A DNA stretch of 64,000 nt. It comes from a virus. Lineage: Duplodnaviria; Heunggongvirae; Uroviricota; Caudoviricetes. Both the position numbers and the translations under genes were made by a program. Positions within the stretch are counted from its first letter, which is position 1, and each line of letters starts with the position of its first letter. Shown here piece after piece: positions 1,508 through 62,447 of the stretch. The notes beneath the pieces were generated by a model. It did no database searches, was not told the origin of the DNA, and worked only from the letters and a program-made list of their open reading frames with translations. Where the stretch lies: IMG/VR virus record IMGVR_UViG_3300043406_000147; one strand, 5' to 3'.

Positions 1508-1570
1508 TACCGCAGAACGGCCTGGCAATGGGGAGGGTGACCTCCCCATTTATGCCGCATCCTACTAAAA

Positions 1571-1602
1571 CTCTATTCCAGATATTTACAATCACATATA
1601 AC
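1571..1602 (+). promoter_or_regulatory. candidate promoter ATTCCA-N16-TATAAC upstream of the lysis-region genes
   Basis: Same motif as at 49091-49116. Confidence 0.4.
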
Positions 1603-1674
1603 TACAGCGAGACACAGACAATAAAAGTCTGATCCACCCACCATCACGCCGTTAGATCGGCACAAGGAACTCGC

Positions 1675-2193
1675 ATGTTTGCACGCTTCATCACCCGTAT
1701 CAAGAATGCCCTCGCTTCTGCAAAAGAGAAGCTGATTGGCTTCTTCACCCGCCATCCGAAAGTGGCTGCCGGCGTCTCGGTGGCTATGACCACTGGTGTC
1801 GCTCTGATTGCGCCGGCTGCTGCTGGCATCGCGTGCACGATTGGTGCCGTCAGCATGGTCGGCGGCATCATCGCCTCCCGCAAGGCAGTGGGTGGCGTCG
1901 TCAAGGCTGCCACTCTGGGACTCGGCATCGCCGGGACGGCTGCTCTGGGCGGCAAGACCAAGGTGGTGATCGCTGCTGCTGCGGCTGCAATTGCAGTGGC
2001 TGCTGGCGCACCGCACATCGCCGTCGCAATCGGCATGGGCTTTGTGTTTGCGTTCGGCGTCGCCATGTTCGCAACGGGCTTCATCGGTTTCGCTATCGGC
2101 CAAGCCCATTCGGCAATCCAGGCTGTGCGTGACCGCAACGCTGCTCGCGGTGTCGAAGAAGTCGAGAGCGAAGAAATCATCTTCGCTTCGTAA
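1675..2193 (+). CDS. Gly/Ala-zipper multi-pass membrane protein (holin-like candidate)
   Basis: A 172-aa ORF after an AAGGAA RBS. Several hydrophobic GxxxG/AxxxA-rich helices and a charged C-terminus; it lies upstream of the endolysin. Confidence 0.5.
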   Translation: MFARFITRIKNALASAKEKLIGFFTRHPKVAAGVSVAMTTGVALIAPAAAGIACTIGAVSMVGGIIASRKAVGGVVKAATLGLGIAGTAALGGKTKVVIAAAAAAIAVAAGAPHIAVAIGMGFVFAFGVAMFATGFIGFAIGQAHSAIQAVRDRNAARGVEEVESEEIIFAS

Positions 2194-2223
2194 TCCATCT
2201 ATCCATCTCCCGTAGGAACCATC

Positions 2224-3148: not shown

Positions 3149-3958
3149 ATGTCGAAATACCCGCATCCTGAAGTATCCTTAGAAATCCGACTCTTACAGA
3201 GGGCACTCAACGAAATCGTCAAAACGCATTTAGACTTGACTGGTGTATTCGATGAAAGGACGAAGCGGGCGCTTGGCCGATATCAGTCGCAGCAAAAGTT
3301 CATGGAATACGACAAGGCAGGCACGTCGTATGGTTCGGAAAGCCGAGCAAGACTGGGTGTGTATATCGAAGAGCGCTTCATTACAGAAAGAACTGTGCAG
3401 GCCGCAGCTGACATGTTAGAAGTCAAGCTCTCGAACTTAAAAACAGCCATCGGTATTTTCTCACATGGGGACGGCTTCGACCCATCCGGGCTGATTCGGT
3501 TGTCTTTCAATCGCTACCGTTTTTATAACGAGCTGGTTTCGAAACTTGGCAAGAGTGCTGCTGACGAACTTCAGCAAACCAACCCTGATCTGATTCTTCT
3601 TGGTGGTCATTCAAAACCCCCGAGCCTTTTTGAAGTTCATGCGTTCAATCAAGCTGCAAAGCTTGAAGAAGTTTCAGCTTCTAAGTCCTGTATCGTGGGG
3701 ATGTTTCAGGTAAGCTCCGCCGAGTATTTACAGCATGGCTATAAAACCCCACAAGAAATGCTGAGTTCATACAACGTGAGTGAGGTTGAGCAGCTGATGA
3801 GTTTTTGTCGGTTCTTGAAGAATCGCCAGTCTCTGCTTGACGCCCTGCGAAAATCTGATTGGACGACTTTTTACCACCGAGCAGGTGACCTTAACGTCAG
3901 AAAGGTTTCGCCAGCCGGCATCGGTAACCTCTGGTTGACGCATTTGAGTGGCGGGTAA
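3149..3958 (+). CDS. endolysin: N-terminal peptidoglycan-binding domain (PG_binding_1-like) plus a muramidase-like (DUF3380-type) domain
   Basis: The N-terminus EVSLEIRLLQRALNEIV...GVFDERTKRALGRYQSQQKF matches the LQ..L...G.....DG.FG..T..A...FQ peptidoglycan-binding repeat. The ATG at 3149 is preferred over the GTG at 3119. Confidence 0.55.
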   Translation: MSKYPHPEVSLEIRLLQRALNEIVKTHLDLTGVFDERTKRALGRYQSQQKFMEYDKAGTSYGSESRARLGVYIEERFITERTVQAAADMLEVKLSNLKTAIGIFSHGDGFDPSGLIRLSFNRYRFYNELVSKLGKSAADELQQTNPDLILLGGHSKPPSLFEVHAFNQAAKLEEVSASKSCIVGMFQVSSAEYLQHGYKTPQEMLSSYNVSEVEQLMSFCRFLKNRQSLLDALRKSDWTTFYHRAGDLNVRKVSPAGIGNLWLTHLSGG

Positions 3959-4023
3959 ACACGCATGGTCCGCCTCTCCATCTGGGTTTTTACGCCCAGA
4001 TGGAGAGGCAGTATGCCGCCTAC

Positions 4024-5766: not shown

Positions 5767-5966
5767 GGCGGAGGGTAAGTTAAATCGTTTGAAGAACCCG
5801 AGGGGGTAAGCCTTGATAGCTTATTCTCGTACTTGAAGAGGTGTGACTACTTTGACGCTGGTAGGATTGCGTCACCATCTGATAGTTGGGTTTGGTTGTT
5901 TTTGAATCGTTCTTCCAGAGCATCGTTTAACCCCTTGAACACTGACGTGTAGAAAAAGCAGGTACC

Positions 5967-7304: not shown

Positions 7305-7763
7305 ATGCTTCAAACGAATCTTCTCGAACTCTCCGGCTTTCTGAAATCGAAAGTCGTCAACATGGGTGATCTGAAAAAGGCCACCAGCATCGCGCTCGGG
7401 ATTGGTCTGAGCTTTCGGCTCCAAGTCCCAACGTCCGATGGTGGGCATGTGGCTCACTACGACAGCGTGCTGGTCCACAGTGCGCTGAAGATGATCAGTG
7501 ATTTCAACGAAACGATCCTCGTGGACGTTGATCTGGCTGCCCGCACTTGCCGATCGTATTGGTTGATGCGCTATGCAGCAGCGACTCGCAATCCCACCGG
7601 CATCGCATCCCCGAATGCGAAGGGGTCTTTCACCGAAAAGATCTTCGGAATGCACCACTACGCCATTCCGGAAGTGCAGGATTTTCTGGAAAACAACTCC
7701 GAGGTGATGGTGGTCATCATCAATCGGATGTCCATGGTGCTCGGCCCCGCCGAACAAGTCTGA
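7305..7763 (+). CDS. hypothetical protein
   Basis: A 152-aa ORF with an AGGTGA RBS. Confidence 0.45.
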   Translation: MLQTNLLELSGFLKSKVVNMGDLKKATSIALGIGLSFRLQVPTSDGGHVAHYDSVLVHSALKMISDFNETILVDVDLAARTCRSYWLMRYAAATRNPTGIASPNAKGSFTEKIFGMHHYAIPEVQDFLENNSEVMVVIINRMSMVLGPAEQV

Positions 7764-7872
7764 TCGCTCGCTGAGTTCAGCTGAGGGTGGGGAAACCCAC
7801 CCTCTATGCTGTATTGTAAAAATGTACAGACATGTACTATTTAGAGGTACATCAACTCGTTAAGAGGAACTC

Positions 7873-8914: not shown

Positions 8915-9007
8915 CGATCTAAGCGATCAAACAACCACAAAAGGCACGGGTGGTGCGGGTTCGTCCCGCACCATTTATGCTGTTAGTTCCTACTTCAGGA
9001 GAACGAC

Positions 9008-11920: not shown

Positions 11921-11934
11921 AACATCGACGATGC

Positions 11935-11980
11935 AGCATAATAGCCGGGCTGAGCCCGGCTATTATGACGTTTCTTTTTT
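11935..11980. terminator. bidirectional rho-independent terminator between converging genes
   Basis: Hairpin GCATAATAGCCGGGC-TGA-GCCCGGCTATTATG followed by a T-run. Confidence 0.6.
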
Positions 11981-16099: not shown

Positions 16100-16138
16100 T
16101 TTCTTTTTTTCACACCTTTGAAATGTTGGAGTAGAGCC

Positions 16139-17368
16139 ATGGGAATTTACGACACCACCACCGAAGCCGCACGTGGCGTGCTGGACGTTGCACGTGACAT
16201 CAACGCAGCGCTGGATGAAGCCGACAAATACACAGGCGGAAAAAGTCTGATTGACGTGTCGAAAAACGCACGTGTCGAGCCGCTGTTCATCGTGGACAGC
16301 GCGCTGCTTGCGTACGAACACATGCCTGATATTGCTCAAACGATGCAATCCATCTTTGCGGGCTACTACCTGCAAGCCGTGGAACACATCACCACAATCG
16401 GTGGGATCAAAGTCACTGACAAGCTGGCTCCTCTGAACCCGAATCGGAAGGTCGACATCGGCCTGATGAGCGAGAACGTGATGGTGCCGTATGCACAGAG
16501 CGCATGCGCCAGCGTGGATGAGTGGCGCCTGAAGGCCGACTCCTACACCTTTACGCTGCCGACCACGAAGAACCGTGTGAAGATCGGCAACGAATCGATG
16601 GTTCCGACCATGAGCACGGAAACGTTGCGCCTTGTGCGGGAACCCATCAAGTCCATCGGCACGGAAGCTGACGATGACAAGAAGGACAAGAACAGCAATT
16701 TCAAAGATGCTGGCAAAGTGATCGGCGAAGTGGCGGCTCTGTCGGTGGGCAAGCTGTACACAATCACGTTGAAAAACGACAAGCAGAGCGTGCCTGTGAC
16801 GGTGGCGATTCGCCTGATGGCCCGCACCATCCCGACCAGCTCACTCACGAGCATCTTCACGTTCAACAACCGTGAGGACATGGATTTCATGGAACGTGTC
16901 CACGGTTGGCGTTCTGGCCGGCTGGAGCTGATCAACGATCTGATCCTGTGCAACGACCTGGTGGATGCCCATCGGAAAAACCTGATCAATGACAAGACGG
17001 GACTCTACCAAGAAATTCTGTCGCGTCAAAACAACGGCCTGGCTGCTGGGCTGCTGGAGCGCAATCCTTCGTTGGCGGTGGCGAGCAACCTCTGTGTCAT
17101 CGACTCATCCACACTGGCGGCGATCGAGATCAAGATGGGTGGGGCGTTCGACAACTACAAGGTTCGTCGCGAGGTGTTCAACACCACCAACATGATGATC
17201 ATGGCTGTGGTGGATCGCGGCTACGATCGGGTGACGTTCTATCACCGCGGTATCGCCACCACCACCGAGATGTCCATCCGTGACATCAAGGTCTCCAACA
17301 AGGGCAATGGTCCGGATGTCACTGACATCCTGAAAGCATTCATGGGTGGGAAAGCCCCTGTTCTCTGA
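16139..17368 (+). CDS. hypothetical protein (possible capsid/virion protein)
   Basis: ATG at 16139 after a GGAG. 410 aa. Divergent from the minus-strand structural genes across a 39-nt promoter region. Confidence 0.5.
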   Translation: MGIYDTTTEAARGVLDVARDINAALDEADKYTGGKSLIDVSKNARVEPLFIVDSALLAYEHMPDIAQTMQSIFAGYYLQAVEHITTIGGIKVTDKLAPLNPNRKVDIGLMSENVMVPYAQSACASVDEWRLKADSYTFTLPTTKNRVKIGNESMVPTMSTETLRLVREPIKSIGTEADDDKKDKNSNFKDAGKVIGEVAALSVGKLYTITLKNDKQSVPVTVAIRLMARTIPTSSLTSIFTFNNREDMDFMERVHGWRSGRLELINDLILCNDLVDAHRKNLINDKTGLYQEILSRQNNGLAAGLLERNPSLAVASNLCVIDSSTLAAIEIKMGGAFDNYKVRREVFNTTNMMIMAVVDRGYDRVTFYHRGIATTTEMSIRDIKVSNKGNGPDVTDILKAFMGGKAPVL

Positions 17369-17408
17369 CCTTCTATTTCTGACCCTCTGACCTTAGGACC
17401 ACGCAAAA

Positions 17409-18299
17409 ATGTTCAGCAAATATCTCTCCCTGCTGCTGCCGAGCTTCGAGCGCTCGCAAGTGATCGCCAGCGCCGAAACCAGCCGGCAAGTCATTCTGGA
17501 GCAAACCCTCCCGTCGATTTCGGGGGCGGAGAAACTCTACGCTGGGAAGAAGCCGGCCAGCAAAGAAGGGCAAGCCCTCGACAAAGCCATCGCCGCGGCG
17601 GTGGGAAACAAGCCACTCTTCACCAACTTGGCGCGTGTTCTCAAGAAGTCCACGGACATTCTTGACTTCTGCATCAAGTACGGTGAAAAAGCTTTCGCCA
17701 ACACGGAAACCAATCGGGCTCTGACATACCCGAAAGTAGCAGTGATTCGCACTGTGGAAGCCAGCGAATACGTCAGCACGTATTGCCGGCGCATGCTGAA
17801 CTACTTCCTGGTGTTCGAAACCATCGCATCGGGTGGTACGACGGCTGCGCTGTCGTCCAGCGAAAAGCTCTGGGTGGAACAAAACCTCCCGGACTTCTGC
17901 ACGGCTCTGAAGTCTCTGGACATCGAAGTGGATGTCTTCGAGCGCATGCTCAAGGATCTCCCTGATGCCGTGGTAAGCGAGCTGGCGGACCGCTCCTTCT
18001 CGAACGTGTCGGGTGTGGGCAAAATCGACCCCATGAACATGCGCAACTTCAGCGCAAAGATCAATCCGTTCTACCTGATTCGGATGACCAAAGCGGCGTG
18101 GGACGCTGAGCGCTATGACTCCGTCAAGGAAGAGCGCAAAATGCTGCAGCTGCGAATGATGCAGTTGGAGCGTCAACGCGACGGCAAGCCCGATGCGAAG
18201 CTCGATGCACAAATCGAGTATCTCCAGAACCGCATCACGGCGCTGAATCAGAAGGCCGAGAAAATGGAGAAGGAATGGCTGAACGGGGACTCCAAATGA
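17409..18299 (+). CDS. hypothetical protein with a C-terminal coiled-coil
   Basis: A 296-aa ORF. The C-terminus (RKMLQLRMMQLERQRD...LQNRITALNQKAEKMEKEW) is heptad-like. Confidence 0.5.
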   Translation: MFSKYLSLLLPSFERSQVIASAETSRQVILEQTLPSISGAEKLYAGKKPASKEGQALDKAIAAAVGNKPLFTNLARVLKKSTDILDFCIKYGEKAFANTETNRALTYPKVAVIRTVEASEYVSTYCRRMLNYFLVFETIASGGTTAALSSSEKLWVEQNLPDFCTALKSLDIEVDVFERMLKDLPDAVVSELADRSFSNVSGVGKIDPMNMRNFSAKINPFYLIRMTKAAWDAERYDSVKEERKMLQLRMMQLERQRDGKPDAKLDAQIEYLQNRITALNQKAEKMEKEWLNGDSK

Positions 18300-18865
18300 G
18301 CGATGTGAAAATCTACCCGAGTGGGTTCATCGGGTCGGCAAAAGTACGTCAAACGAAAACAAAGGGCTTTGAAGACATTGCCCGACGAATCATTGACCGA
18401 GCTGTCAGTTCTGATTCTTCGAACTACACCGCCAGCTTGGATGTGATCGAACTCTGGGATGTCGTTCGGCAAAACAAGCCGGAATTCCGGACGTTCGAGT
18501 TCAAAGAAAAGATCATTGTCACGGCGCTGAACACCTTCGGCGCTTCGACATTGGGGCAGTGGATTGATTTGCAACTGTCCTCCGAGGAGCACAGCTCGCA
18601 TCACACAGCCTGGCTCGAAGAAACAATGGGCTACGTCATTCTGGGTGCTCGACGAAAGCTGAACTATGACAGCTGGACCATGCTTTTGTCTGCGGACGGG
18701 AAGCCCGAAAGAACCACAAATCGTGGTTGGAAGCTCGATCAGCTGTTGAAAGACCGCCCCTACCAAAACATGACGATGCGAAATGTCGTGCTGATGTGGG
18801 TGCAACGCGAAGGCGGGATCAACGATCTGATCGAAAGTCTGTTCGTCTTGTACGGTCCTCGTTAA
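18296..18865 (+). CDS. hypothetical protein
   Basis: ATG at 18296 overlaps the upstream stop (ATGA). 189 aa. Confidence 0.45.
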   Translation: MSDVKIYPSGFIGSAKVRQTKTKGFEDIARRIIDRAVSSDSSNYTASLDVIELWDVVRQNKPEFRTFEFKEKIIVTALNTFGASTLGQWIDLQLSSEEHSSHHTAWLEETMGYVILGARRKLNYDSWTMLLSADGKPERTTNRGWKLDQLLKDRPYQNMTMRNVVLMWVQREGGINDLIESLFVLYGPR

Positions 18866-18886
18866 TCAGAAGGCGAAGGGGTGTCT

Positions 18887-20323
18887 ATGTCTGAGAACAA
18901 CGACAACCTGCAGGAATGGTCGGCTGACCAGGAATACAGGCAACACCCCATCTGCGTCTTTGAAGATGACGAGCTGCATCTTGCAGAGCAGATGGATCAA
19001 AAAACCATTGCCATGGCAAGCGACATCGCAACCAAATGTGATGCCGTGGTTTCCATGGAAGCGGTTGTGAATTACATCGACGTACAAGGTAAGTCGGTGA
19101 CACTGGGCAACACCACCATCGCCATGGCCAACATGGCCATTGGTGGGTTCGCTGATCAAGCAGGTATTTCTACCGATGCTCGTCTGCTTTCGATGGAGAG
19201 TGACGGGTATAGCCAAAGCGTAGACCAGATGAAAAGCGCGATCGACAGCGCTTACTCCGGCATCAAGAAGAAGTTGACATTCTTAGCCAAACATGTGGCT
19301 GAGGTGCTGGCTTTCTTTGGTCGGAATCTGATGAAACTGAAAATCAAGCTGAAGCTGCTGGAGCAGTCTCTGGCTGAGATGAAACAAGAACACCCGAAGC
19401 TCAACGCCATCAAAGCAGAGAACTGGTGCGAATACCTGTGCTACTCAAACAAAGGCTTCGTGGCGGGCTTGGGTGGCATTGGTGAGGCTATTGAAGAGCT
19501 GATTTCGTCACATCGAAAGATGTCGACGGATGCTGTTCACAAGTACACCGGGTGGCTGAAAGACAATCGTGGGTTTTTCAGGGATGCGCCTGACACACAG
19601 GCAGTCGTGGGGCAGTTTGCTGAACTGACTTCGAACTCAAACGAGTTTCTACTGCCCAACATGTCATTGTTCAACCGAACAATTGGGCTGGATGAGCCGG
19701 CTGATGGCTTCGCCTTCTATCGCTCGAAAGAGCTGCCGGGTGGGCGAGCCTTCTATTCGGAAGTCTGTCCTGGAGAAAGCAAGTCCACCGATGTCATCAG
19801 CGCACTGAGTGGCCTTAACTTTCGAGTGGATTACTTCGATCCGACATCCTACAAGACAATGAAGATGAAGGTCGTGGCTGCGGTAGCCATTCCGATGTCT
19901 GTATGGTTGGCGTATGTCAACCCTGCACTCGGACTGGTGGCTGGTGCAGGCACTGCGCTTTATCTGAGCCAACAAAAGATCAACGGGTCTGGCAACGACC
20001 AAGTGCGAATGACAAAAGACATGGTCTACCCGTGTCTGACAAAAGCACAACTGGAGAAAGTCATCCAAGTTGTCAAAGAGAACATCAAGGCCCTTGAAAA
20101 ATGGGATCACGATGTCCTGCAGGATGCTTGGAAAGCAAACGACATTGACGAAGTGATCGCATCGGTCACAGACGGAGAAGTCGAACATCCTGTTCTCAAG
20201 AGTTACTGCAATGCGCTGTTGGCTTTGATTGCCAAGATTGGTTCTGGTGTTCAGAATTACGCATTTCGCGTACTGAACGCAATGATCAACTTTGCACAAA
20301 AAAGTCAAATCCAGTACGTCTAG
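18887..20323 (+). CDS. divergent sixth member of the tandem paralogue family (internal virion protein-like)
   Basis: Shares GI.T..R...MESD......Q.....I.....IKK.L.F.AK...E...FF with the downstream paralogues. RBS GAAGGGG. Confidence 0.5.
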   Translation: MSENNDNLQEWSADQEYRQHPICVFEDDELHLAEQMDQKTIAMASDIATKCDAVVSMEAVVNYIDVQGKSVTLGNTTIAMANMAIGGFADQAGISTDARLLSMESDGYSQSVDQMKSAIDSAYSGIKKKLTFLAKHVAEVLAFFGRNLMKLKIKLKLLEQSLAEMKQEHPKLNAIKAENWCEYLCYSNKGFVAGLGGIGEAIEELISSHRKMSTDAVHKYTGWLKDNRGFFRDAPDTQAVVGQFAELTSNSNEFLLPNMSLFNRTIGLDEPADGFAFYRSKELPGGRAFYSEVCPGESKSTDVISALSGLNFRVDYFDPTSYKTMKMKVVAAVAIPMSVWLAYVNPALGLVAGAGTALYLSQQKINGSGNDQVRMTKDMVYPCLTKAQLEKVIQVVKENIKALEKWDHDVLQDAWKANDIDEVIASVTDGEVEHPVLKSYCNALLALIAKIGSGVQNYAFRVLNAMINFAQKSQIQYV

Positions 20324-20416
20324 GTCGGAATCTTTTGACCACCATGGCCTCAGGCACTTCAGGTGCTTGGGGCCGTTTTATGCTGTTTATCCACAGAACA
20401 CAGGAGTACCGCTAAA

Positions 20417-22342
20417 ATGCGATTCACAATAGGTACGGCTCGACGCGTTGGGATGGAAGACGACGATGTCGATACAGACAAAAAAATAGAACCGGCACCC
20501 AAAGAGCCGGAGAAGCCCAAAGAAGAGCCTGAGAAAAAAGAAACGCCTCCGGAGGAGCCGAAACCAGAGGAAGATCCTCCTGCTGAAGACCCGCCACCAG
20601 AAGCGAATGAAGATCCTCCTGCCGACACAGCGGAATCACCTGCTGACGATGGTGTGTCAGGCGACGCGCAAACCACACCTGAAACTCCGCCTGCTGAACC
20701 TGTCGTGCAAATCAAAGGGCAGCTGAATGTGGATAAAGCAGTTGAGGACATCGAAAACAAAGCGGCCGCTGATGAAGTGGCCAAGTCTGAACAGAACGCC
20801 TTAGGAAAAATCGTGAGCAACATTGATCAAAGTGCAAACATTGCCAACGAAGACGCTCTCCATCAGCGGATGGTGGACGCTCTTCCGTATGAGAATCCGA
20901 CCAGTGTGGCTGCAGATGCTGCGCGCATCACCCTTGAATTCGAAGGAATTCAAGATGAGCTTGACAACGCAAGTGAAACAATCGAAACAGTGTCAGATGT
21001 GGCGAGTACTCTCTCGCAAGCCAGTCCAAGTGAAATGAATAATGCGTCGGGGCAAGCGCTTTGTGCTGCCCTCGAACACTTCCGCACCAGCTTAGGCGTT
21101 CGGAAAACAAACTTTGGGATGGAAGGCTATCTCACGGGTCGCTACACCTTGAAAGCCAAACACTCGATGGCAATGGAAGGCATCAAGGAGTTCATGAAAG
21201 ACCTCTGGGAGTTCATTATCGAAACCACCAAGAAAATCGGTGAATGGATCAAGGGGTTCTTCAAGTGGGTGTGGGGTGTGCTGACCAAGCAACGCCGAGA
21301 TGCGCAGCGGGCACAAGAGGCTTGTGTTGCGGCAAAAAAGAAGGAGCAAGACGCCCCTTCTGAAGCGGTGGTCTTGGCAGATCAAACAGAAACCGAACTG
21401 GCTGTTTTGGAGAAAGGCAGCAAGGCTGAGTTTGACAAAGCCATCGAAAAGATCAAAGCAAGCAACAATGTCACAGCGCTGATCCTGAAGGAAATGAAGC
21501 AGCAACCTTCCCAGCTGTACATGAAAGAATTCAGCTTCCTGCATAAGGACGGCGTGCCTCTGACCGCACAAGAAATCCAAGACCTTTCTGTCAAGGGCTT
21601 CAGTTTGATTGAAAACGAGATGGTGCACCATCTCGGTGAGATGAACATTTTGCAAAAAGCAGTGGATGACTTTTTACAGGTGGCCGATCGCACTTCTGAT
21701 GAGTTGTATCGGGCAAGCCTCGCATTGCCTGGGGTTGTTCGTCCAACAGCTGTCGGTCAATATGAGACCTATGAGCTGTATGACGATGGCACTGCGCAAT
21801 GCTTGATTCGCCATTTGCCTGGCAATCACGCTGTATATCGACTGTGCTTGCAGGACACAACTCAAGAAGCATTTAAAGACAATATTCGCACGCTGAAGAA
21901 ATATGTGTTGCCGCTTGAAAAGAGCGCCGACCCTGACGCAGCTTTGGAATATACTTCGGTTGACAGGGCGTATGTTTTCTTGGATTACTTCAAGAAAGCG
22001 GACGCGAAGATCGAACAGGGTATCGGCGAACTCCGAGACAAGATCGAGGCAGCCCTGGATTATCTTCACGACAAAGCTACCGAGATGAAGAAAAACTTCG
22101 GTAAAGAAGAGCAGCTCCCAGTTGAGGATGGGCGCGAATATCCGCTGTCAGTGCGGCGTGTGCTCGACTTTTATCGAAATCAAATGAGTTCATTCACGAT
22201 CACATTTTCAAACTACTACATCAAACTCAAGGAACAACTGATCAGCTACATGACGCAATGTGCGCAGCGGCGGTATCAGCTTATTCATGCGAGTGAGGAA
22301 GTGTTGAAAGAAATTGCGAAGATGAACCCTTCGCTTGTGTGA
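20417..22342 (+). CDS. paralogue family member 1 (Pro/Glu/Lys-rich N-terminal low-complexity region)
   Basis: ATG at 20417 after an AGGAG. Conserved core AMEGIKEFMKDLWEFIIETTKKIGEWIKGFFKWVWG. Confidence 0.6.
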   Translation: MRFTIGTARRVGMEDDDVDTDKKIEPAPKEPEKPKEEPEKKETPPEEPKPEEDPPAEDPPPEANEDPPADTAESPADDGVSGDAQTTPETPPAEPVVQIKGQLNVDKAVEDIENKAAADEVAKSEQNALGKIVSNIDQSANIANEDALHQRMVDALPYENPTSVAADAARITLEFEGIQDELDNASETIETVSDVASTLSQASPSEMNNASGQALCAALEHFRTSLGVRKTNFGMEGYLTGRYTLKAKHSMAMEGIKEFMKDLWEFIIETTKKIGEWIKGFFKWVWGVLTKQRRDAQRAQEACVAAKKKEQDAPSEAVVLADQTETELAVLEKGSKAEFDKAIEKIKASNNVTALILKEMKQQPSQLYMKEFSFLHKDGVPLTAQEIQDLSVKGFSLIENEMVHHLGEMNILQKAVDDFLQVADRTSDELYRASLALPGVVRPTAVGQYETYELYDDGTAQCLIRHLPGNHAVYRLCLQDTTQEAFKDNIRTLKKYVLPLEKSADPDAALEYTSVDRAYVFLDYFKKADAKIEQGIGELRDKIEAALDYLHDKATEMKKNFGKEEQLPVEDGREYPLSVRRVLDFYRNQMSSFTITFSNYYIKLKEQLISYMTQCAQRRYQLIHASEEVLKEIAKMNPSLV

Positions 22343-22371
22343 TTTTTTTTCCTGTAAAGAGAGTTTTCATC

Positions 22372-23778
22372 ATGAAACGAAATCTGACCCTGGCCACCAT
22401 CAATCTCAACGTCGGTCTTCTGAGTGAGCAAGAAGACAGCGCCGCCATGGCGGCTGCCCTTGCGGCGTATGAGCAAACCGAACCGACTGCGGCAACTGGT
22501 CTGGTTGAAGCCGGCACCGAGCTGGAAAACGTGACCCAAGCCGTCGAAGATGGGGGCGAAGCGGCACAAGTCGTCGATGCTGCACTGGCTCCCCTGGAAG
22601 AATCCCAAGAAGAAATCAACACCCCGGCGTTGGAGGCATTGCGGATCTGCCTGAAGCACATGTCCGGCCAACTCGGTATTCCGACGAGTCGTCGGATGGG
22701 CATGGAGTCGGACGCCACCCTGACCAATCGGCAAATTGCCATGGAAGGGATCAAGGAGTTCGCTTCCAAGATCTGGGAGGCGATCAAAGCAGCTTTCGCA
22801 AAGATCAGCGAATGGATCAAGGGGTTCTTCACATGGCTCTTCCGAATGGGTGACCGGACAGAGAAGGCGCTGGCTGTTGAAGAAAAGCGTGCGGAATCGC
22901 TGAGCAAGGTTGACATTTCCGAAAAGGCTGCGGAGATGGCAAAACAGCACAAAGAAGAACTACATGCCCTTTCTGGGCAGTCCAGTGCTGGCTCGCACCC
23001 GTACCTGTATGTCCCGAATGGCGGTGAGTCGGTTGAAGGGGGTAACTTCGTCAAAGCGGTGGAGAACACGTTCTCTTATGTGAGCAAGAGCATCGAAGCC
23101 AAGTTCCTGTCGAAGACGAGCTGCAACAACCTTGCAGCTCTACTGCTCCAAGACATGAAGCACTTCGCTGATGAAAAGATCGAGGCGCTGAAGTTCACCC
23201 AAGAAGTGGCTGAAAAGTATTACTTCATGGCCGAAGAAAAAGTCGACGGTCAGAAATATCGCTCTGCACAACCTCTGCTGGGTGATTACCAAGTGCTGGA
23301 GCAGCGCCCCGACAGCCCGACAGCCCGGTACCATATCGGGTTCGAGCGCGCAGGCGGCGCAACCGATCAAATCATCAAAACTCTCACCCCCGCTGAATCG
23401 AAACAGCTGGCAAAAATGGCAGGCAAATTCATCGACAGGAGTTCGCTTTCTGACGTTGAGAAGTTTGTGACTTCGAAAATCGAGGAGCTTTCGAAAGAGC
23501 TGAATACGGCAAGCCTTGCTGCCACTAAGAGCAGCCTCAAGGCGGCTGCTGGAGGCGGTAGTTTTGGAGACAGTCCGACGCGTGACGTGTTCAACAACAT
23601 CAAGCGTGGCTTCGATCTCTTCCAGGTCATTTTCTGCGGATTCCTGCCCAAGGTGCTTTCGTACAAAGTCACACTGTGCGAAAATATCAAACACCATGTG
23701 AAAGTGTCGAACGACTTTGCTGAATCTGTGAGCAAATTCAATCAGCAAATGGAGAATGGCGAGGCGTTCGTGCTGTAA
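22372..23778 (+). CDS. paralogue family member 2
   Basis: The conserved ALEALRICLKHMSGQLGIP motif precedes the AMEGIKEFASKIWEAIKAAFAKISEWIKGFFTWLF core. Confidence 0.6.
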   Translation: MKRNLTLATINLNVGLLSEQEDSAAMAAALAAYEQTEPTAATGLVEAGTELENVTQAVEDGGEAAQVVDAALAPLEESQEEINTPALEALRICLKHMSGQLGIPTSRRMGMESDATLTNRQIAMEGIKEFASKIWEAIKAAFAKISEWIKGFFTWLFRMGDRTEKALAVEEKRAESLSKVDISEKAAEMAKQHKEELHALSGQSSAGSHPYLYVPNGGESVEGGNFVKAVENTFSYVSKSIEAKFLSKTSCNNLAALLLQDMKHFADEKIEALKFTQEVAEKYYFMAEEKVDGQKYRSAQPLLGDYQVLEQRPDSPTARYHIGFERAGGATDQIIKTLTPAESKQLAKMAGKFIDRSSLSDVEKFVTSKIEELSKELNTASLAATKSSLKAAAGGGSFGDSPTRDVFNNIKRGFDLFQVIFCGFLPKVLSYKVTLCENIKHHVKVSNDFAESVSKFNQQMENGEAFVL

Positions 23779-28350: not shown

Positions 28351-28367
28351 TCAACACCAACGAAACA

Positions 28368-40163: not shown

Positions 40164-40194
40164 ACGCCATTTGAGGCGTTTTTTATGCCGCATG
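40164..40194 (+). terminator. rho-independent terminator with a TTTATGCCGCAT tail
   Basis: ACGCCATTTGAGGCGT followed by a T6 run and ATGCCGCAT. Confidence 0.55.
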
Positions 40195-40252
40195 TACGAA
40201 TGGGTCAAGTAATCGATTGAGGCGCTCATTTGAGCGTTTAAAGGGATTTAAA

Positions 40253-40778: not shown

Positions 40779-40828
40779 TCATAGACCCTCCTGAGCTGCC
40801 GACTAAGCAAGCTCAGGAGGGTCTATGA
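40779..40828. repeat. perfect 18-bp-stem hairpin
   Basis: TCATAGACCCTCCTGAGC-(14 nt loop)-GCTCAGGAGGGTCTATGA lies directly after the HNH gene. Confidence 0.7.
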
Positions 40829-40894
40829 TTGCATTGAATTATGGACATAGATTATTGATTGGAACACCCGTTCAAACCACTTAGGAGTTATCGC

Positions 40895-45454: not shown

Positions 45455-45643
45455 CTGAGTCTCAATAGGGGAAGATTGGTACGGGCCTAGGAAAGTACAC
45501 GGCCCTCAAATTTTAGACCACCACACTACTCTTCTACGTGATACCTCAAACCGAGAAGCGATCCGTGAGCTGTACGAAAAGGTTTCCGCGATGGCCAAAA
45601 AGTACAGCATCACCATCAAAGGGCTGAGTTAGCCCGAACCAAG

Positions 45644-45673
45644 CGGCATAAATGGGGGCGCATGCCCCCGATG
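45644..45673. repeat. conserved palindromic repeat family copy (CGGCATAAATGGGGGCGCATGCCCCCGATG)
   Basis: Same CGGCATAAATGGG arm as the copies at 33530 and 62411. Lies in a 250-nt intergenic gap. Confidence 0.6.
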
Positions 45674-45703
45674 TTCAATACTTACCTAGGAATGCGAATC
45701 ACC

Positions 45704-49775: not shown

Positions 49776-49852
49776 TGCGGCATAAAAGATCGCCTTCGGG
49801 CGATCTAAGAAAAGGCTTGTCCTTTTCTTTTTTCTTTCTTGAGAGGTACGTT

Positions 49853-50270: not shown

Positions 50271-51908
50271 ATGCAAGCTCCCGCAGACACCATCATCACC
50301 TCCGCCCCCACCACCGTCAAGTGGACCAGTCTCGGCGATTATCCCATCTTCCTGGAACGCGTGAAGGCGCGGTTCCTGAAGAACACCGACAACGGCAAGC
50401 GGCCGGTCTTCGCCACCACCACCACCGGCTTGTGGGAGATGTACCTCGACGGGATCGCTGACCCCGTGGAGCGCCAACACAAGAACTGCCGCACCTGCAA
50501 GAAGTTCATCGAAGCCTACGGCACCCTCGCCGTGGTCGATGAGGACGGCATCCTGCGCTCGCTGATGTGGGATGAAGAAGACGCACCCGAATCGCTGCGC
50601 CTGTCCATCGCCAACATGGCCAAGACGGTCCGCCGGGCCGAAATCAAGACGGCGTACTTCTCGCCGCTGGCAACCTGGGGGACGGCGGTCACCGGAGACT
50701 GGTCGCATCTTTCGGTCGACGTGCCCCCGATGATGCGCTTTCGCCACCCGGTGATGGAAGCACACCAGCTCTCGGCCGAAAAGATCCAGGAGTTCAACTC
50801 GGTCAAGCTCGCCCTCAGCGAGTACACCGTGGACCACCTGACCACGGCGGTTCAGCTGCTGAACGCCGAAGCGCTCTACCGCACCGAAAAGGTGTTGGGT
50901 CCGGCGCAGTGGCTGCTCGAACGAAAGCAAGAGCAAGCCAGCACGGCGGGGACTCAGCGGCAAGACAACCTGCTCTGGAAAGCGATCGCCACCGCGCCGT
51001 CCGGCTTCTGCCACCCGCGCTCCAGCATGATCGCCACGCTGCTGGATGACATCGCCGCCGGAAAAGACTTCGAAGCAGTCAAGCGCTCCTTCGACGTCAA
51101 GATGAACCCGACGGTCTACATGCGTCCGCAAACGGGCCCGTCGGCCGGTGAAATCGCGGCTGCCGAAAAGCTGTTCGAGCAGCTCTCGTCTGGCGATTCC
51201 CTGCGCCGCCGTTTCGCACGACTGGATGAAGTCAAGGCCATCTGGAAGCCGGCACCGAAGAAGGAAGAAAAAGCAACGGGTGACGGCCTGTTCTCGCATC
51301 TGAAGCTCAAGACGGACGCATCGTCCAGCGAAAAGATCGCCCTGCAACTCCCGCCGAAGCTGATGACGTGGGAGAAGTTTGCTTCCACGGTGCTCCCCAC
51401 TGCGGAACGCATTCAACTGCACACACCGATCTACGGCGCATACGCGCCCCTGGTCACCGCCGCGAACATGGATGCGCCTCCGATCATCCAGTGGGACACC
51501 GAAGAAAACCGCAACCCGGTCTCCTGGTATTTCCGCTCCAACGGTTGTTCTGCTCGCACGTTTGGGCTGGCCTCTGATGTGTTCGTGGAAGTGGAAGCTG
51601 TCACGATGCAACCGTCCATGTGGAATGGCGGCTTCGAGCACCAGGGTGCCGGCGTGATGTTCATCCTGCAGGGTGCGCATGAAACTCAAGAAGCGGGCGC
51701 TGCGCTGTTCCCCGAAATCCTGAAAACGGAGTATCGGGGTATTCGTTCTGTGCTGGAGGCATACTCCAACCATGCGAAAATTGAAGGCATCAACGAACCC
51801 CATGCTGCCGGCGTCATGCTCAGCAAGAACCGCGCAGGCTGGGACCAGATTCTGAAGGTCTGGTCGGATGGCAAGGCCAGCACGTACAAGCTGGATCGCT
51901 GGGAATAA
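50271..51908 (+). CDS. GC-rich hypothetical protein (545 aa; moron-like)
   Basis: AGAGG RBS and a strongly elevated GC3. Long mirror ORFs lie on the opposite strand. Confidence 0.5.
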   Translation: MQAPADTIITSAPTTVKWTSLGDYPIFLERVKARFLKNTDNGKRPVFATTTTGLWEMYLDGIADPVERQHKNCRTCKKFIEAYGTLAVVDEDGILRSLMWDEEDAPESLRLSIANMAKTVRRAEIKTAYFSPLATWGTAVTGDWSHLSVDVPPMMRFRHPVMEAHQLSAEKIQEFNSVKLALSEYTVDHLTTAVQLLNAEALYRTEKVLGPAQWLLERKQEQASTAGTQRQDNLLWKAIATAPSGFCHPRSSMIATLLDDIAAGKDFEAVKRSFDVKMNPTVYMRPQTGPSAGEIAAAEKLFEQLSSGDSLRRRFARLDEVKAIWKPAPKKEEKATGDGLFSHLKLKTDASSSEKIALQLPPKLMTWEKFASTVLPTAERIQLHTPIYGAYAPLVTAANMDAPPIIQWDTEENRNPVSWYFRSNGCSARTFGLASDVFVEVEAVTMQPSMWNGGFEHQGAGVMFILQGAHETQEAGAALFPEILKTEYRGIRSVLEAYSNHAKIEGINEPHAAGVMLSKNRAGWDQILKVWSDGKASTYKLDRWE

Positions 51909-51939
51909 CTACCCAGTTCTGAAGTAGTATCGAAACAGT

Positions 51940-51972
51940 AAATGGGGGCGTGTCCCCCATTTATGCCTTATC
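51940..51972 (+). terminator. conserved palindromic repeat family copy / terminator
   Basis: AAATGGGGGCGTGTCCCCCATTTATGCCTTAT. Confidence 0.55.
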
Positions 51973-53286: not shown

Positions 53287-53874
53287 GTGAAGAAAACCTT
53301 TTGGAAGTTTGTGGCGGCTTTGTTCGTCGGTCTCGTGAGCTTCGCCGCTCATGCTCAGTACAGTGCGCGCGTGACGCTGGATGGAAACTGGTACCTCCAG
53401 GCCGGGCAAGTGGAGAACTTCACCCCAGGCGTCAACATCGTCGGCATGCGCTACTCCACCGGCCTGCATGAGGACGGCGGTGCCGTGTTCGAGCAGTACA
53501 TCGCAGGCGACACGCGGGACGGCTGGCTCACGCCCCAGAACACGCACTACAGTGTGTCGGACTGGAGCACCTCCCTGGCGGCGGGTCAGACCTTCACCTT
53601 CTCGGGCCTGGATCTGGACATCATCACCAACATCGCAACCAACGAGGTGGACAGCCAAAATCTCGACACGGTGGGCACATCACTGCGGACGGCGTACATC
53701 GAACTCACGTTCGCTGACGGCTACTACAAGGTACTGCATCTGAACCCGACGCCGTGGAGTGTCACGCAGGTCCTGGAGTTCGGCGTCGCCCCGATTCCGG
53801 AGCCCGAATCCTACGCCATGATGCTGGCAGGGCTGGGTGTTCTCGGCGCCGTTCGGCGTAAGGCCAAGGGCTGA
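53287..53874 (+). CDS. secreted PEP-CTERM domain protein
   Basis: N-terminal signal peptide MKKTFWKFVAALFVGLVSFAAHAQ. C-terminal PIPEPESYAMMLAGLGVLGAVRRKAKG matches PEP + TM helix + basic tail. GTG start with an AGAGGA RBS. GC-rich. Confidence 0.55.
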   Translation: MKKTFWKFVAALFVGLVSFAAHAQYSARVTLDGNWYLQAGQVENFTPGVNIVGMRYSTGLHEDGGAVFEQYIAGDTRDGWLTPQNTHYSVSDWSTSLAAGQTFTFSGLDLDIITNIATNEVDSQNLDTVGTSLRTAYIELTFADGYYKVLHLNPTPWSVTQVLEFGVAPIPEPESYAMMLAGLGVLGAVRRKAKG

Positions 53875-53942
53875 ATAAGTCCAAGCAGGTAGAATAAATG
53901 GCGGGTATGAGCCCCGCCATTTATGCCGCATCAGGAGAAAAC

Positions 53943-58985: not shown

Positions 58986-61247
58986 ATGATCGAACAAATC
59001 ATCAAGCGCAACGGGATGACCGAGGCATTCGACCCCTCCAAGCTCATCAAGTGGATGATGTGGGCGGACACGCGCTTCAAAAATCTGTCTGATTGGGCCG
59101 AAGCTTCAATCGACGTGATCAACACCTTGAATGGTCGGGTGCATTCTCAGACGTTACAGAAGCGTCTGATTCGCCGACTTCTGGAGCTGGGTGGCTGGGC
59201 TAACAACTGCGTGGCGGGCCGACTCTACGCGTGCTTGGTTCGCAAAGAGATCTTTGGCGACAAGATGCCCACGGTTCGCCGTGCTCTGGAAATCGCACAC
59301 TACGCCGGCCTGGCTCGAAAGTTCAACTACACCGACGACGAATGGACTCAGATCGAGTCGTTCATCGATCATGACCGTGACAACGAAATGGCGTATTTCC
59401 AGATACGTCAAGTGGTGAAGAAGTACAGCATCCAGAATCGCCACACGAAGAAGTATTTCGAAACACCGCAAATCACATACATGCGACTGGCTCTTGCACT
59501 GGCGGAGTCCGAGCCTGTTGAGGAGCGGATGATTCATGCGAAGAATTGGTACGACCATTTCAGCCTGAATCGCATCAACTCCCCCACCCCGAATTACCAA
59601 AGTTTGGGCACCTACAACAACGGTCTGGCTTCTTGCTGCTTGTTTGGTGCTGATGATACGGCAGCATCGATCGCGGCTGGTCAACTCATCGCCAACACCA
59701 TGGTTTACATGGGATCTGGAATCGGCGGCACGGTCAATTGCCGCAGTGAAGGCGAGCCCATCCGAAATGGCGCCATCATCCACCAAGGGAAACTGCCGTA
59801 CTACATGGCGTATGGCAAGACCATCAAGTCGAACAAGCAAGGCACGCGAGGTGGCGCTGGTACGTTTTACTACAACGGCTTCGACAAAGATGCTGATGGC
59901 CTGGCGATGGCTCAAAATCCACGCACGCCTGAAGCCCGTCAAAACCGGGACCTGCATTTCGGTTATCAAACCAACGCCTTCTTCGCTTGGAAAGCAGCCC
60001 GCAATGAAGACGTGTTCGCTTTCAATACGTTCACTGCTCCCGATCTGATGGAGAAGTTCTACAGCGGTGACATCGATGGTTTTGCTGCGCTTTACAAGAA
60101 GTACGAAGCCGACGAGGGCTTTGTCAAGCATTACCGAAGTGCTCGTGAGTTCATCATCAAGGCTCGTCGTCAGAGTTACGAAGTCGGCACCCACTACCCG
60201 ATGTTTGTCGACGAGGTGAACCGCCACACGCCGTTCCTCGAACCCATCCGGTCATCCAATCTTTGTGCGGAAATCATGCAGCCCACAAAGCCCTACATGG
60301 ATGCAAGCTACCTCTATCGCAGCGACGATCACCAGCAAGGTGAAGTCTCGATGTGCAGTCTGGCTGCCCTGGTCGTCTCGAACCTCCACACCGACGAGGA
60401 GTACGAAAGTGCAGCCTATTACGCTGCCAAAATGATTGACAAGTGCATCGATCTCTCAGACTACCCATTCCCCCACGTGGCATTCACGTCCAGAATGCGT
60501 CGCAACGCTGGCATCGGAATGACGGGTGTGGCAACCGTGATGGCTCGTGCTGGAGTCAAGTATTCCGAACAAGCCGGCCTCGAAGAACTCGACCGGATCG
60601 CCGAACGTCATTCGTGGTTCTGTATCAAGGCAGCCTTGAAGCTTGGGCAAGAAAAAGGCAACGCTCCTTGGATACATAAGACCAAGTGGCCTCAAGGTTG
60701 GCTGCCGCGTGACACCTACAACCGCGGTGTGGATGAACTGGTCGCCCCGGTTTGGCGGTATGACTGGGATCGCATGAGTCAGGACATCATCGACAACGGC
60801 GGTATCCGTTTCTCATGTGTGATTGCACACATGCCCACTGAGAGTTCTTCGAAGAGTTCTGGTGCGCCGAATTCCTTCCTCCCGATCCGTGAACTCTGGA
60901 TGGCCAAGACGGACGGCGATAACCTGATCGACTGGGCTGCCACGGATTCCAACATCCTCGCCGACAAGTATGAACTGGCTTGGAAAATCCCAATCATCAG
61001 TCAGATCCAATGCTGGGGTGTTGTTCAGAAACACACCGACGGTGGCGGGTCTTACGACCTATACGCAGACCGAAGCAAGGACCTGACACTCTACACCGAC
61101 AACATGCTCGCAGAATACCTGGAAATGGTCAAGCGTGGTCTGAAATCGCATTATTACCAAAACTCACTGACGACTGACCAAAAGGGAAATTCAGTTGAGT
61201 TGGCGATTGAAGATGCCTGCGGTCCCAATGGCGGCTGCAAACTGTAA
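58986..61247 (+). CDS. nrdA: ribonucleoside-diphosphate reductase alpha subunit (class Ia, with an ATP cone)
   Basis: The N-terminal KRNGMTEAFDPSKL is ATP-cone-like, and SSNLCAEIMQPTKP is the active-site motif. 753 aa. Confidence 0.7.
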   Translation: MIEQIIKRNGMTEAFDPSKLIKWMMWADTRFKNLSDWAEASIDVINTLNGRVHSQTLQKRLIRRLLELGGWANNCVAGRLYACLVRKEIFGDKMPTVRRALEIAHYAGLARKFNYTDDEWTQIESFIDHDRDNEMAYFQIRQVVKKYSIQNRHTKKYFETPQITYMRLALALAESEPVEERMIHAKNWYDHFSLNRINSPTPNYQSLGTYNNGLASCCLFGADDTAASIAAGQLIANTMVYMGSGIGGTVNCRSEGEPIRNGAIIHQGKLPYYMAYGKTIKSNKQGTRGGAGTFYYNGFDKDADGLAMAQNPRTPEARQNRDLHFGYQTNAFFAWKAARNEDVFAFNTFTAPDLMEKFYSGDIDGFAALYKKYEADEGFVKHYRSAREFIIKARRQSYEVGTHYPMFVDEVNRHTPFLEPIRSSNLCAEIMQPTKPYMDASYLYRSDDHQQGEVSMCSLAALVVSNLHTDEEYESAAYYAAKMIDKCIDLSDYPFPHVAFTSRMRRNAGIGMTGVATVMARAGVKYSEQAGLEELDRIAERHSWFCIKAALKLGQEKGNAPWIHKTKWPQGWLPRDTYNRGVDELVAPVWRYDWDRMSQDIIDNGGIRFSCVIAHMPTESSSKSSGAPNSFLPIRELWMAKTDGDNLIDWAATDSNILADKYELAWKIPIISQIQCWGVVQKHTDGGGSYDLYADRSKDLTLYTDNMLAEYLEMVKRGLKSHYYQNSLTTDQKGNSVELAIEDACGPNGGCKL

Positions 61248-61262
61248 ATCTAGGAGAACGAC

Positions 61263-62393
61263 ATGAGCGAAATCATTCTTGACGACAAGATTTTCAACAC
61301 CGAGAAGACGGACTACGAAGACACCCCGTTGTTCTTGGGACAAGCCTCCGGCCTATACGACACGATCAACGGGAAGTACCCCCAGATCGAGAACCTGACA
61401 CTGAAGATGCAGGCGCTGGATTGGTCGGAGCGTGAAGTTCCGTTCGATACCTGCAACGCTGAATTCAAGAGCGTACCAAAGTCGATCTACGACATGGCGT
61501 TCCTGAACCTGGCATTCCAATGGGAAGGGGATAGCGTCGCCGCCCGGTCGCTCACGCCGATCATGGCACCGTTCGTCAGCTCTTCGCAGCTGTGGACAGC
61601 TTACACCGAGATCCAGAAAAACGAAGGCGTGCATGCGCGCGCTTACGGCGAAATGGTTCGACTCTCGTTCGATGATCCGAACGCTGTGATCCGGCACATT
61701 CATTCACTCAAAGATACCTTTTACCGACTCAAAACGGTTGGTGAGGTATTCCGCGACGCTTACGTGGCTTCCCACAAGTACGCGCTTGGGTTGATCCCCA
61801 ATGACAAGCACTTGTACAAGACGCTGATGCTTTACGTGGTGGCAATGTACCTGATGGAGCGAATCCAGTTCATGGCCTCGTTCGCTGTCACGTTCTGTCT
61901 GTCTGATGAAGGGTTGTTCATGCCTATCGGTCAAGTCGTGCAGAAAATCTGTCAAGATGAATTCGAAGTACATGCTCGCCTCGGCGAAGCTGTGCTCGAC
62001 ATCGAGCTGAAGACGCATCGCGGCATGATGTTCTGGTACGAGAATTCCGACCAGATCAAGCAAATGATCATGGACGTGACACAGAGCGAAATCGAGAACA
62101 TCAAGTATCTCCATCAAGAAGGCCGCCGTCTTCCGAATGCCACGGAAAAGCAGCTGGTGGATTGGGTGTACTGGAACGTTCTTCCGGTGTACTCGTTCTT
62201 CCGCATTCGTCCTGAAGTGCCGGTCCTGTCGAAGAACCCACTTCCAATCATGAACAACTGGACCAACATCGGCCTCCAGCAAAACTCCCCCCAAGAGCAG
62301 AAGAACATGCAATACTTCCTTGGGCAAGTGGTGGATAACCTGGGAACAAAACCAATTGCTACCATGGCGCACTTGGATTCCCGGTTCGGTTAA
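61263..62393 (+). CDS. nrdB: ribonucleoside-diphosphate reductase beta subunit
   Basis: Ferritin-like di-iron ligands (KNEGVHARAYGE; QDEFEVHARLGE). TAGGAG RBS. 376 aa. Confidence 0.65.
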   Translation: MSEIILDDKIFNTEKTDYEDTPLFLGQASGLYDTINGKYPQIENLTLKMQALDWSEREVPFDTCNAEFKSVPKSIYDMAFLNLAFQWEGDSVAARSLTPIMAPFVSSSQLWTAYTEIQKNEGVHARAYGEMVRLSFDDPNAVIRHIHSLKDTFYRLKTVGEVFRDAYVASHKYALGLIPNDKHLYKTLMLYVVAMYLMERIQFMASFAVTFCLSDEGLFMPIGQVVQKICQDEFEVHARLGEAVLDIELKTHRGMMFWYENSDQIKQMIMDVTQSEIENIKYLHQEGRRLPNATEKQLVDWVYWNVLPVYSFFRIRPEVPVLSKNPLPIMNNWTNIGLQQNSPQEQKNMQYFLGQVVDNLGTKPIATMAHLDSRFG

Positions 62394-62410
62394 ACCGGCA
62401 TCGAAGTAGA

Positions 62411-62447
62411 CGGCATAAATGGGAGGCCCGGCCTCCCATTTATGCTG
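62411..62447. terminator. conserved palindromic repeat / bidirectional terminator
   Basis: CGGCATAAATGGGAGGCCCGGCCTCCCATTTATGCTG. Confidence 0.6.

Follow-up and report, generated by a model that had tools for sequence, protein, structure and literature searches.

Hairpins with a TATG tail in a divergent phiKZ-like jumbo phage are very probably phiKZ-type intrinsic transcription terminators

The 64,000-nucleotide (nt) stretch of the Caudoviricetes record IMGVR_UViG_3300043406_000147 (hereafter, the window) carries, mostly at the ends of genes, a set of GC-rich hairpins followed by a short tail built on TATG. These elements are very probably factor-independent transcription terminators of the type known from phage phiKZ, in a divergent phiKZ-like phage. 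They represent a known kind of terminator, found here in a new and very divergent member of the group, and not a new repeat family. The motif, its placement, its conservation throughout the lineage and the coincidence of mapped phiKZ RNA 3′ ends with the TATG were each observed directly, as described below. The elements give a ready-made map of the ends of transcription units in an uncultured phage, and the result corrects a tempting misreading of the TATG as a promoter.

The initial annotation of this stretch had described a family of conserved palindromes at intergenic hairpins, nearly always followed by TATGC(C/T)G. Every copy that it listed is present where it was placed, the longer TTATGCCGCAT does occur at four sites, and the claim that the copies share sequence in addition to structure holds for a subfamily of the form AAATGGG(R)GG...CCYCCCATTT; the copies at 33530-33566 and 62411-62447 are near-identical (35 of 37 positions by reading) and have unrelated flanks. 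Copies that had been overlooked lie at 11934-11967 (minus strand), 20344-20385 (plus), 25294-25326 (plus), 39578-39605 (minus) and 40780-40827. The motif is commoner in the window than expected by chance: CCCATTTATGCCG, with at most two mismatches, has 11 matches versus 1.1 expected, a number reached by none of 100 shuffles, and TATGCYG has 25 matches versus 9.3 expected, with none of 100 shuffles as high. The composite of hairpin and tail is a far stronger signal than these simple counts. With a GC-rich hairpin defined as a stem of at least 6 bp that includes at least five G-C pairs, 17 of the 29 TATGYYG sites on both strands adjoin such a hairpin; 100 shuffles that kept the dinucleotide composition gave 0.07 on average and never more than 2. 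Counted from the hairpins, TATG stands at the stem end in 22 of the 143 GC hairpins of the window (15%, versus a background of 2.2%; p ~1e-12), and the base that follows the hairpin and TAT is G in 22 of 29 cases, versus 26% G in the genome.

The tail consensus of the window is cCatTTATGCCG(c/t), or tTTATGCCG in the form anchored on TATG; the G most often lies 6-7 nt from the outermost G-C pair. The hairpins have folding free energies (dG) of about -10 to -38 kcal/mol; for seven sites that were folded together with shuffled sequences, the z-scores ranged from -1.8 to -4.9, the weakest being those of the short hairpins at 45640-45680 (minus strand) and 40155-40195. A permissive RNAfold scan upstream of every TATG gave many intragenic false positives and was used for intergenic sites only. 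A canonical T run (six or more T residues among the first 8 nt past the stem) follows only 1 of the 143 hairpins, at 49807-49835 (see below). Since the window holds a single classical hairpin of this sort, the TTATG tail is likely to be the normal stop signal of the phage.

Terminators of this type have been described in two Pseudomonas phages. For phiKZ, 133 transcript 3′ ends were mapped by ONT-cappable-seq (Putzeys et al., 2024, microLife; PMC10914365), and 61 terminator regions share BCCYCCCCHWWDGGGRRGGBYTTATKYYGT, a stem-loop followed by a TTAT region; most of the copies were classed as intrinsic terminators by ARNold, and stems with conserved sequence are known among them (PMC10914365). 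Phage 201phi2-1 has a similar motif A (n=59), and eight selected 201phi2-1 terminators halted transcription in vivo, in a two-reporter assay in uninfected cells (PMC11512511). The elements of the window resemble these terminators in having a GC-rich stem-loop of G and C runs directly followed by YTTATKYYGT, in being sited after gene ends, and in the occurrence of bidirectional copies at convergent genes; moreover, the window tail, (T)TTATG-C-C/T-G-(T/C), fits the phiKZ tail, YTTAT-K-YY-G-T, position by position. The same architecture can be read in the phiKZ sequence, for example in cgcctcccttcggggaggcttTATGTTGtt, and in cataggccctcccttcggggagggctttatgttgt after the major capsid gene. The differences concern the 5′ arm of the stem, which is C-rich in phiKZ (CCYCCCC...GGGRRGG) and usually G-rich in the window (GGGGAGG...CCTCCCC), and the preferred tail, which is TATGCCG or TATGCTG in the window and TATGTTG or TATGTCG in phiKZ, consistent with their respective GC contents, 51% and 37%. 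With the canonical bacterial intrinsic terminator the elements have in common a GC-rich RNA hairpin, a U-rich segment and a 3′ end several nt past the stem, as well as upstream A residues able to pair with the U stretch and palindromic, bidirectional copies. However, the U tract of the window type is only UUU-A-U, followed by a conserved G-YY-G, and the tail is lineage-specific, being absent from the hairpins of phages RSL1 and T4. The proposal of the initial annotation that the hairpins are terminators is thus borne out by the match to the phiKZ consensus, and also by their placement after stop codons and at convergent junctions (see below).

The coordinates of the phiKZ 3′ ends and start sites, taken from the bioRxiv supplement of Putzeys et al., were compared with the sequence for the segments 0-50 kb and 100-150 kb. 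These segments hold 46 terminators, 15 of which carry a hairpin and TATG; in all 15 the published 3′ end lies at -1 (4), +1 (6) or +2 (5) from the G of the tail. In variants with TTTATT or TTTATA the 3′ end is found at the equivalent position, which indicates that TTAT is the release stretch and that the G is preferred, not obligatory. The 20 late start sites listed for these segments all fall elsewhere than on a tail TATG, as judged by eye and not by script, and so do the early and middle start sites noted beside terminators.

At 17 sites of the window the hairpin starts 4-38 nt past a stop codon on the same strand; at one more site the distance is 92 nt. In a census of gene junctions in six sequences (the window, the two 50-kb phiKZ segments, and the phages FLC9, RP12 and SpecialG), 36 sites were found at 22 convergent junctions, where they occupy both strands and are near saturation, and none at 21 divergent junctions; 33 sense sites were found between co-directional genes, and 23 sites were antisense, many of them the mirror arm of a palindromic hairpin. 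Sites at convergent junctions can serve only the gene that has just ended; an element that acts solely as a promoter should be found at divergent junctions. In the window itself, a hairpin with TATG is present at seven of the eight strand positions of the four convergent junctions, and at least ten copies are antisense or point into the 3′ end of a gene on the other strand (4012+, 11940-, 11964+, 33536-, 33560+, 62417-, 62441+, 39584-, 45650- and 49784-). That a few copies face convergent gene ends or point antisense had been entered as a caveat in the initial annotation, and it was the correct clue. Three of the four divergent junctions of the window (5767-5966, 16100-16138 and 35855-35935) contain neither TATG nor CATA; the second of these, 38 nt long, heads the long structural operon at 16139-33524. 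The promoters of these three regions would therefore be of another class or lie inside neighbouring coding sequence. A search for the phiKZ early-promoter core, GAGATCTATATTAC, gave nothing above chance.

One unbiased hairpin scan was applied to several genomes, with the frequency of TATG at the stem end versus background as the metric. TATG follows 35-40% of the hairpins in the two phiKZ segments (background 6-7%), 11% in Burkholderia phage FLC9 (1.2%), 12% in Ralstonia phage RP12 (2.3%) and 24% in Erwinia phage SpecialG (3.4%), an enrichment of 5- to 10-fold in these four phages; among 24 relatives from metagenomes or IMG/VR, about 20 were 4- to 25-fold enriched. Two phages that use the host polymerase served as controls, and no enrichment was found in either, the Ralstonia jumbo phage RSL1 having TATG at 1 of 149 hairpins and T4 at 3 of 20 (not significant). 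The base after the hairpin and TAT is G in 43-80% of cases in five phiKZ-like phages, versus 19-28% G in their genomes, again without enrichment in the controls. The TATG-anchored consensus is the same throughout (TTTATGCCGnT in RP12, TTTATGCCGttt in SpecialG, tTTATGttgTtt in phiKZ and ttTATGccgTtt in the pooled relatives): the window and the three named phages agree in it despite different hosts and GC contents of 37-57%, and over the lineage the tail is kept at GC contents of 30-57%. FLC9 and SpecialG resemble the window in having stems with a G- or purine-rich 5′ arm (GGGGAGG...CCTCCCC). Across the lineage, tail-bearing stems have 38 G.U versus 12 A.C pairs (p=3e-4), a window example being 20344-20376, and this excess indicates that the structure has been selected as RNA, on the strand that bears the tail. 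The scan thus extends a stop signal described in two Pseudomonas phages to phages of Burkholderia, Ralstonia and Erwinia and to many metagenomic relatives, and a hairpin followed by TTATGYYG(T) could serve as a simple annotation marker for the phiKZ-like group.

By its sequence, the window belongs to a distant phiKZ-like jumbo phage on a deep, unsampled branch. The placement rests on the virion proteins, the internal head proteins and the DNA polymerase, which together bear out the earlier guess of a phiKZ-like phage: a 993-aa virion protein is 38.6% identical to that of FLC9 and about 36% to those of Ralstonia phages RP12 and RP31, the DNA polymerase is 49.7% identical to that of FLC9, and Pfam and PHROG scans revealed an array of PF12699/PHROG internal head proteins. 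Ribonucleotide reductase subunits are also encoded. The best identities of window proteins to those of known phages are 39-50%, and in the comparison with phiKZ and 201phi2-1 the phage is only 33-50% identical in protein sequence. Megablast of the window against the phage collection gave no nucleotide match, and protein-seeded scans of IMG/VR and metagenome contigs yielded no close relative, the best identity being 44%; at such distances orthologous terminators are not alignable for covariation analysis. Rfam and tRNA scans of the window returned no hits.

In the mechanism that we propose, the transcribed end of a gene or operon would fold into a GC-rich RNA hairpin, and transcription would halt in the short U-rich stretch (A/Y-U-U-U-A-U) past it, so that the 3′ end of the RNA would form at the G of TATG or no more than about 2 nt away from it, the G being 6-7 nt past the final G-C pair of the stem. 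In place of the long U tract of bacterial terminators there would be the tail, (T)TTATG-YY-G-(T), and perfect palindromes (CGGCATAAAT-stem-ATTTATGCCG), with a tail on both strands, would allow bidirectional termination at convergent gene ends. The tail is kept across the phiKZ-like lineage and is lacking in phages dependent on the host polymerase, which makes the lineage's own multisubunit RNA polymerases its most likely readers.

Several points weigh against these elements being terminators. The 3′ ends obtained by ONT-cappable-seq cannot, on their own, tell termination from processing, and termination in the phage of the window is something that we infer from the homology of the signal. No gene for an RNA polymerase subunit emerged within the 64 kb when 40 proteins were scanned against PHROG and Pfam, so that the enzyme proposed to read the tail is not seen here. 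The junction census relied on our own simple open reading frame (ORF) caller. Among the relatives, no enrichment was found in L009 (IMGVR_UViG_3300050144_000109; 0/20 hairpins), L027 (Ga0228698_1000380; 1/64) and L012/L031 (1/11); some phiKZ-like sublineages may use a different terminator tail. Lastly, the copies at 39578-39605, 45644-45669 and 49778-49806 are on the minus strand between plus-strand genes, a search for minus-strand genes beside them found none that was convincing, and these three would be understandable only if there were a need to block antisense transcription. Two of the three are back to back with a plus-strand terminator, and all three may serve to end antisense or non-coding transcripts; of the phiKZ terminators, 9% are antisense to genes (PMC10914365).

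The uncertainty over the nature of the published 3′ ends also speaks for an element of RNA 3′-end processing or stability, in which the polymerase would read through, an endonuclease would cut near UAUG and the hairpin would shield the new 3′ end; a conserved G-YY-G downstream of the end is, moreover, unusual for an intrinsic terminator. However, the eight 201phi2-1 terminators stopped transcription between reporters in uninfected cells (PMC11512511), a U-rich stretch of 6-7 nt after a GC stem is the geometry of an intrinsic terminator, and this is how ARNold classed most of the phiKZ copies (PMC10914365), so that we hold processing to be very improbable. Still less credible, to the point of being almost negligible, is a selfish palindrome, similar to repetitive extragenic palindromic (REP) sequences or to miniature inverted-repeat transposable elements (MITEs), or a palindrome bound by a protein at the DNA level. 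Six copies do share AAATGGG(R)GG...CCYCCCATTT, and two of them are near-identical over 37 nt, but no similarity extends beyond the hairpin and tail, the stems of most copies are unrelated, which leaves the tail as the one shared part, and the same tail is found in phages with protein identities below 50%. In addition, the excess of G.U over A.C pairs points to pairing in RNA and not in DNA, and conserved stem sequences are equally known from phiKZ terminators (PMC10914365). A REP- or MITE-like mobile repeat was rejected on the unrelated flanks and on a placement locked to stop codons; the likeness among copies comes from a constrained terminator consensus.

The reading favoured in the initial annotation was a fusion of terminator and promoter, in which the hairpin would stop the upstream RNA and the adjoining TATG would be a late promoter starting at the G. 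Its premise is correct, in that TATG is the core of phiKZ late promoters, where transcription starts at the G and the bases past TATG are not conserved (PMC4666361), and the phiKZ non-virion polymerase binds TATG in the non-template strand at -3 to +1 of late promoters (PMC12809450). At 12 co-directional sites of the window, 18-121 nt (median about 32) separate the G from the start codon that follows, which would make a plausible 5′ untranslated region, and phiKZ promoters are often found within 5-50 nt past terminators. These promoters, of the early, middle and late classes, are nevertheless separate elements. The closest cases are P049 (about 94330 of NC_004629) and P075 (about 145659), late starts only 5-10 nt past a terminator tail; each uses a second TATG of its own (ccTTATGCTATGt and TTTATAATGCTATGt, respectively), so that stop and start signals stand in tandem, nucleotides apart. 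No hairpin precedes P119L, the late promoter studied in most detail, and the terminator tail has the YYG(T) that late promoters lack after TATG. Moreover, a late promoter lies upstream of, and in the orientation of, the gene that it drives, whereas the window copies are on the strand of the gene that has ended, occur on both strands at convergent junctions and where no gene follows, and are absent from all 21 divergent junctions; even the head of the structural operon is without TATG. What the tail does share with the late promoter is the four bases TATG, with the G at the point, within 2 nt, where terminated RNAs end. Given the placement of the tail, the phiKZ 3′ ends at TATG and the lack of start sites there among those compared, the promoter reading is not supported: TATGC(C/T)G is the published terminator tail, and we think it improbable that it doubles as a coupled promoter. 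The fourth divergent region of the window, 63590-63686, differs from the other three in containing TTTATGCCC at 63596-63604, without a GC hairpin, and TACTATGTG, with TATG at 63643-63646, whose G precedes the ATG at 63686 by 40 nt; this second TATG is the best candidate in the window for a hairpin-less late-type promoter.

A more speculative idea, which we think rather unlikely, is that the terminator tail mimics the late-promoter core on purpose. As the polymerase reaches U-A-U with G next, the non-template TATG would be in the -3 to +1 register, and the pocket of the beta lobe (phiKZ GP123) would bind it, causing a sequence-specific pause; the pause would let a hairpin with a U-rich stretch of only 5-6 nt release the RNA, and the conserved YYG(T) would tune the outcome between start and stop. 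The position of the phiKZ 3′ ends, -1 to +2 nt from the G, and the enrichment of G after hairpin and TAT are compatible with this scheme, under which one element of four bases would mark both start and stop for a polymerase family. In a limited literature search we found no discussion of the coincidence between the terminator tail and the late-promoter TATG.

The first four elements of the window lie on the plus strand. At 1527-1557, 19 nt past the stop codon of gene 713-1507, the hairpin AATGGGGAGG-GTGA-CCTCCCCATT (dG -18.2) is followed by TATGCCG(CAT). At 3972-4018, a 16-bp hairpin (dG -32.6) with AG-TATGCCG lies 13 nt past the stop of the endolysin-like gene 3149-3958 and faces the 3′ end of the minus-strand DNA polymerase gene, with which that gene forms a convergent pair. 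The hairpin at 7783-7811, GAGGGTGGG-GAAA-CCCACCCTC followed by TATGCTG(T), is 19 nt past the stop of 7305-7763, and that at 8951-8982 reads TGGTGCGGG-TTCGT-CCCGCACCA, then TTTATGCTG(T). The palindrome at 11934-11970, CATAATAGCCGGGC-TGA-GCCCGGCTATTATG (dG -23.6), is a putative bidirectional terminator at a convergent junction; its minus-strand tail, TATGCTGCAT, is 18 nt past the stop of the gene for the 993-aa virion protein, and its plus-strand tail is TATGACG.

Within the structural operon, the plus-strand element at 20344-20385, a 15-bp stem (dG -25.2, z -3.9) with TTTTATGCTG(T), begins 20 nt past the stop of 18887-20323; with three G.U pairs by reading, the stem should be stable only as plus-strand RNA. 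The element at 25294-25326, CGTAATGGAGGGG-TTCG-CCCCTCCATTATG then TCT (dG -21.4; plus strand), is a variant with TATGTCT. Its hairpin, 25294-25323, overlaps the start of the longest ORF of the next gene (ATG at 25298); a start at 25352 is more likely, and the longest-ORF call is thus probably wrong. At 26719-26749 on the plus strand, AGAGAGGGGA-GTCA-TCCCCTCTCT and TATGCCG(T) are found 20 nt past the stop of an internal-head-protein gene. The palindrome at 29935-29970, CATACATCGGGGC-GCAA-GCCCCGATGTATG (dG -24.7), 4 nt past the stop of 28368-29933, has the tails TATGCCG(T) on the plus strand and, as its mirror, TATGTTC on the minus strand. A run of five or six paralogous genes for internal-head-protein-like products (PF12699, phrog_2497, phrog_6807) occupies 18887-29933 within one co-directional operon; the elements at 20344, 25294 and 26719 break it up, and another, at 29938, ends it. 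Graded read-through at these terminators may set the relative expression of the paralogues.

The near-identical pair mentioned above consists of candidate bidirectional terminators, both with a dG of -21.9. The first, 33530-33566, reads CGGCATAAATGGGAGGCC-GGG-CCTCCCATTTATGTTG and lies between the convergent genes 32175-33524 (plus) and 33584-33964 (minus), with TATGCCG(T) as its minus-strand and TATGTTG(T) as its plus-strand tail; the second, 62411-62447, reads CGGCATAAATGGGAGGCC-CGG-CCTCCCATTTATGCTG and lies between the gene for the ribonucleotide reductase small subunit (61263-62393, plus) and an endolysin-like gene (62537-63526, minus). Between the two, on the plus strand, a 13-bp stem at 37028-37068 (dG -26.7) is followed by GC-TATGCTG(T), 30 nt past the stop of 35936-36997. 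A 48-nt palindrome, 40780-40827 (element 40780-40830), CATAGACCCTCCTGAGC...GCTCAGGAGGGTCTATG, is set in a CATA...TATG frame 8 nt past the stop of 40217-40771, with the tails TATGATT on the plus strand and TATGACA on the minus strand (dG -36.5 / -38.0). The minus-strand copy at 45644-45669, GGGGGC-ATGC-GCCCCC then ATTTATGCCG, is between plus-strand genes; on the plus strand, the next bases after the hairpin are GATG. In the back-to-back pair at 49778-49835, the minus-strand copy, 49778-49806, reads AGATCGCC-CGAA-GGCGATCT then TTTTATGCCGCAT, and the plus-strand element, 49807-49835, is the only canonical T-run terminator of the window, AAGAAAAGG-CTTGT-CCTTTTCTT then TTTTCTTTC; it might serve a different polymerase, such as the host enzyme. 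Two further plus-strand elements are at 51938-51968, a TATGCCT variant (TAAATGGGGG-CGTGT-CCCCCATTTA then TGCCT) 29 nt past the stop of 50271-51908, and at 53894-53928, where ATAAATGGCGGG-TATGAGC-CCCGCCATTTAT is followed by GCCG(CAT), 19 nt past the stop of 53287-53874.

The remaining copies flank an AT-rich non-coding stretch of about 650 nt, 39560-40215, between genes 37093-39489 and 40217-40771. At its left edge, a looser plus-strand copy (39503-39567), with a long hairpin at 39503-39551 (dG -26.9, z -4.9) and TATGCTG 9 nt downstream, follows gene 37093-39489; back to back with it, at 39578-39605, is the minus-strand copy GCACCCT-AAAA-GGGGTGC then CTTTATGCCG(T) (dG -15). At the right edge, the short plus-strand hairpin at 40164-40190, ACGCC-ATTTGA-GGCGT (dG -10.4), is followed by TTTTTATGCCG(CAT). 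No Rfam hit, tRNA or ORF of at least 60 aa was found in the stretch. It contains runs of AAAGAAAG and CTTTCTTTT, four copies of ACTT at 39831-39846 and short hairpins, such as GGGGGGTGAAACCCCCC at 39811-39827, and could hold non-coding RNAs, a cluster of early promoters or a replication origin.

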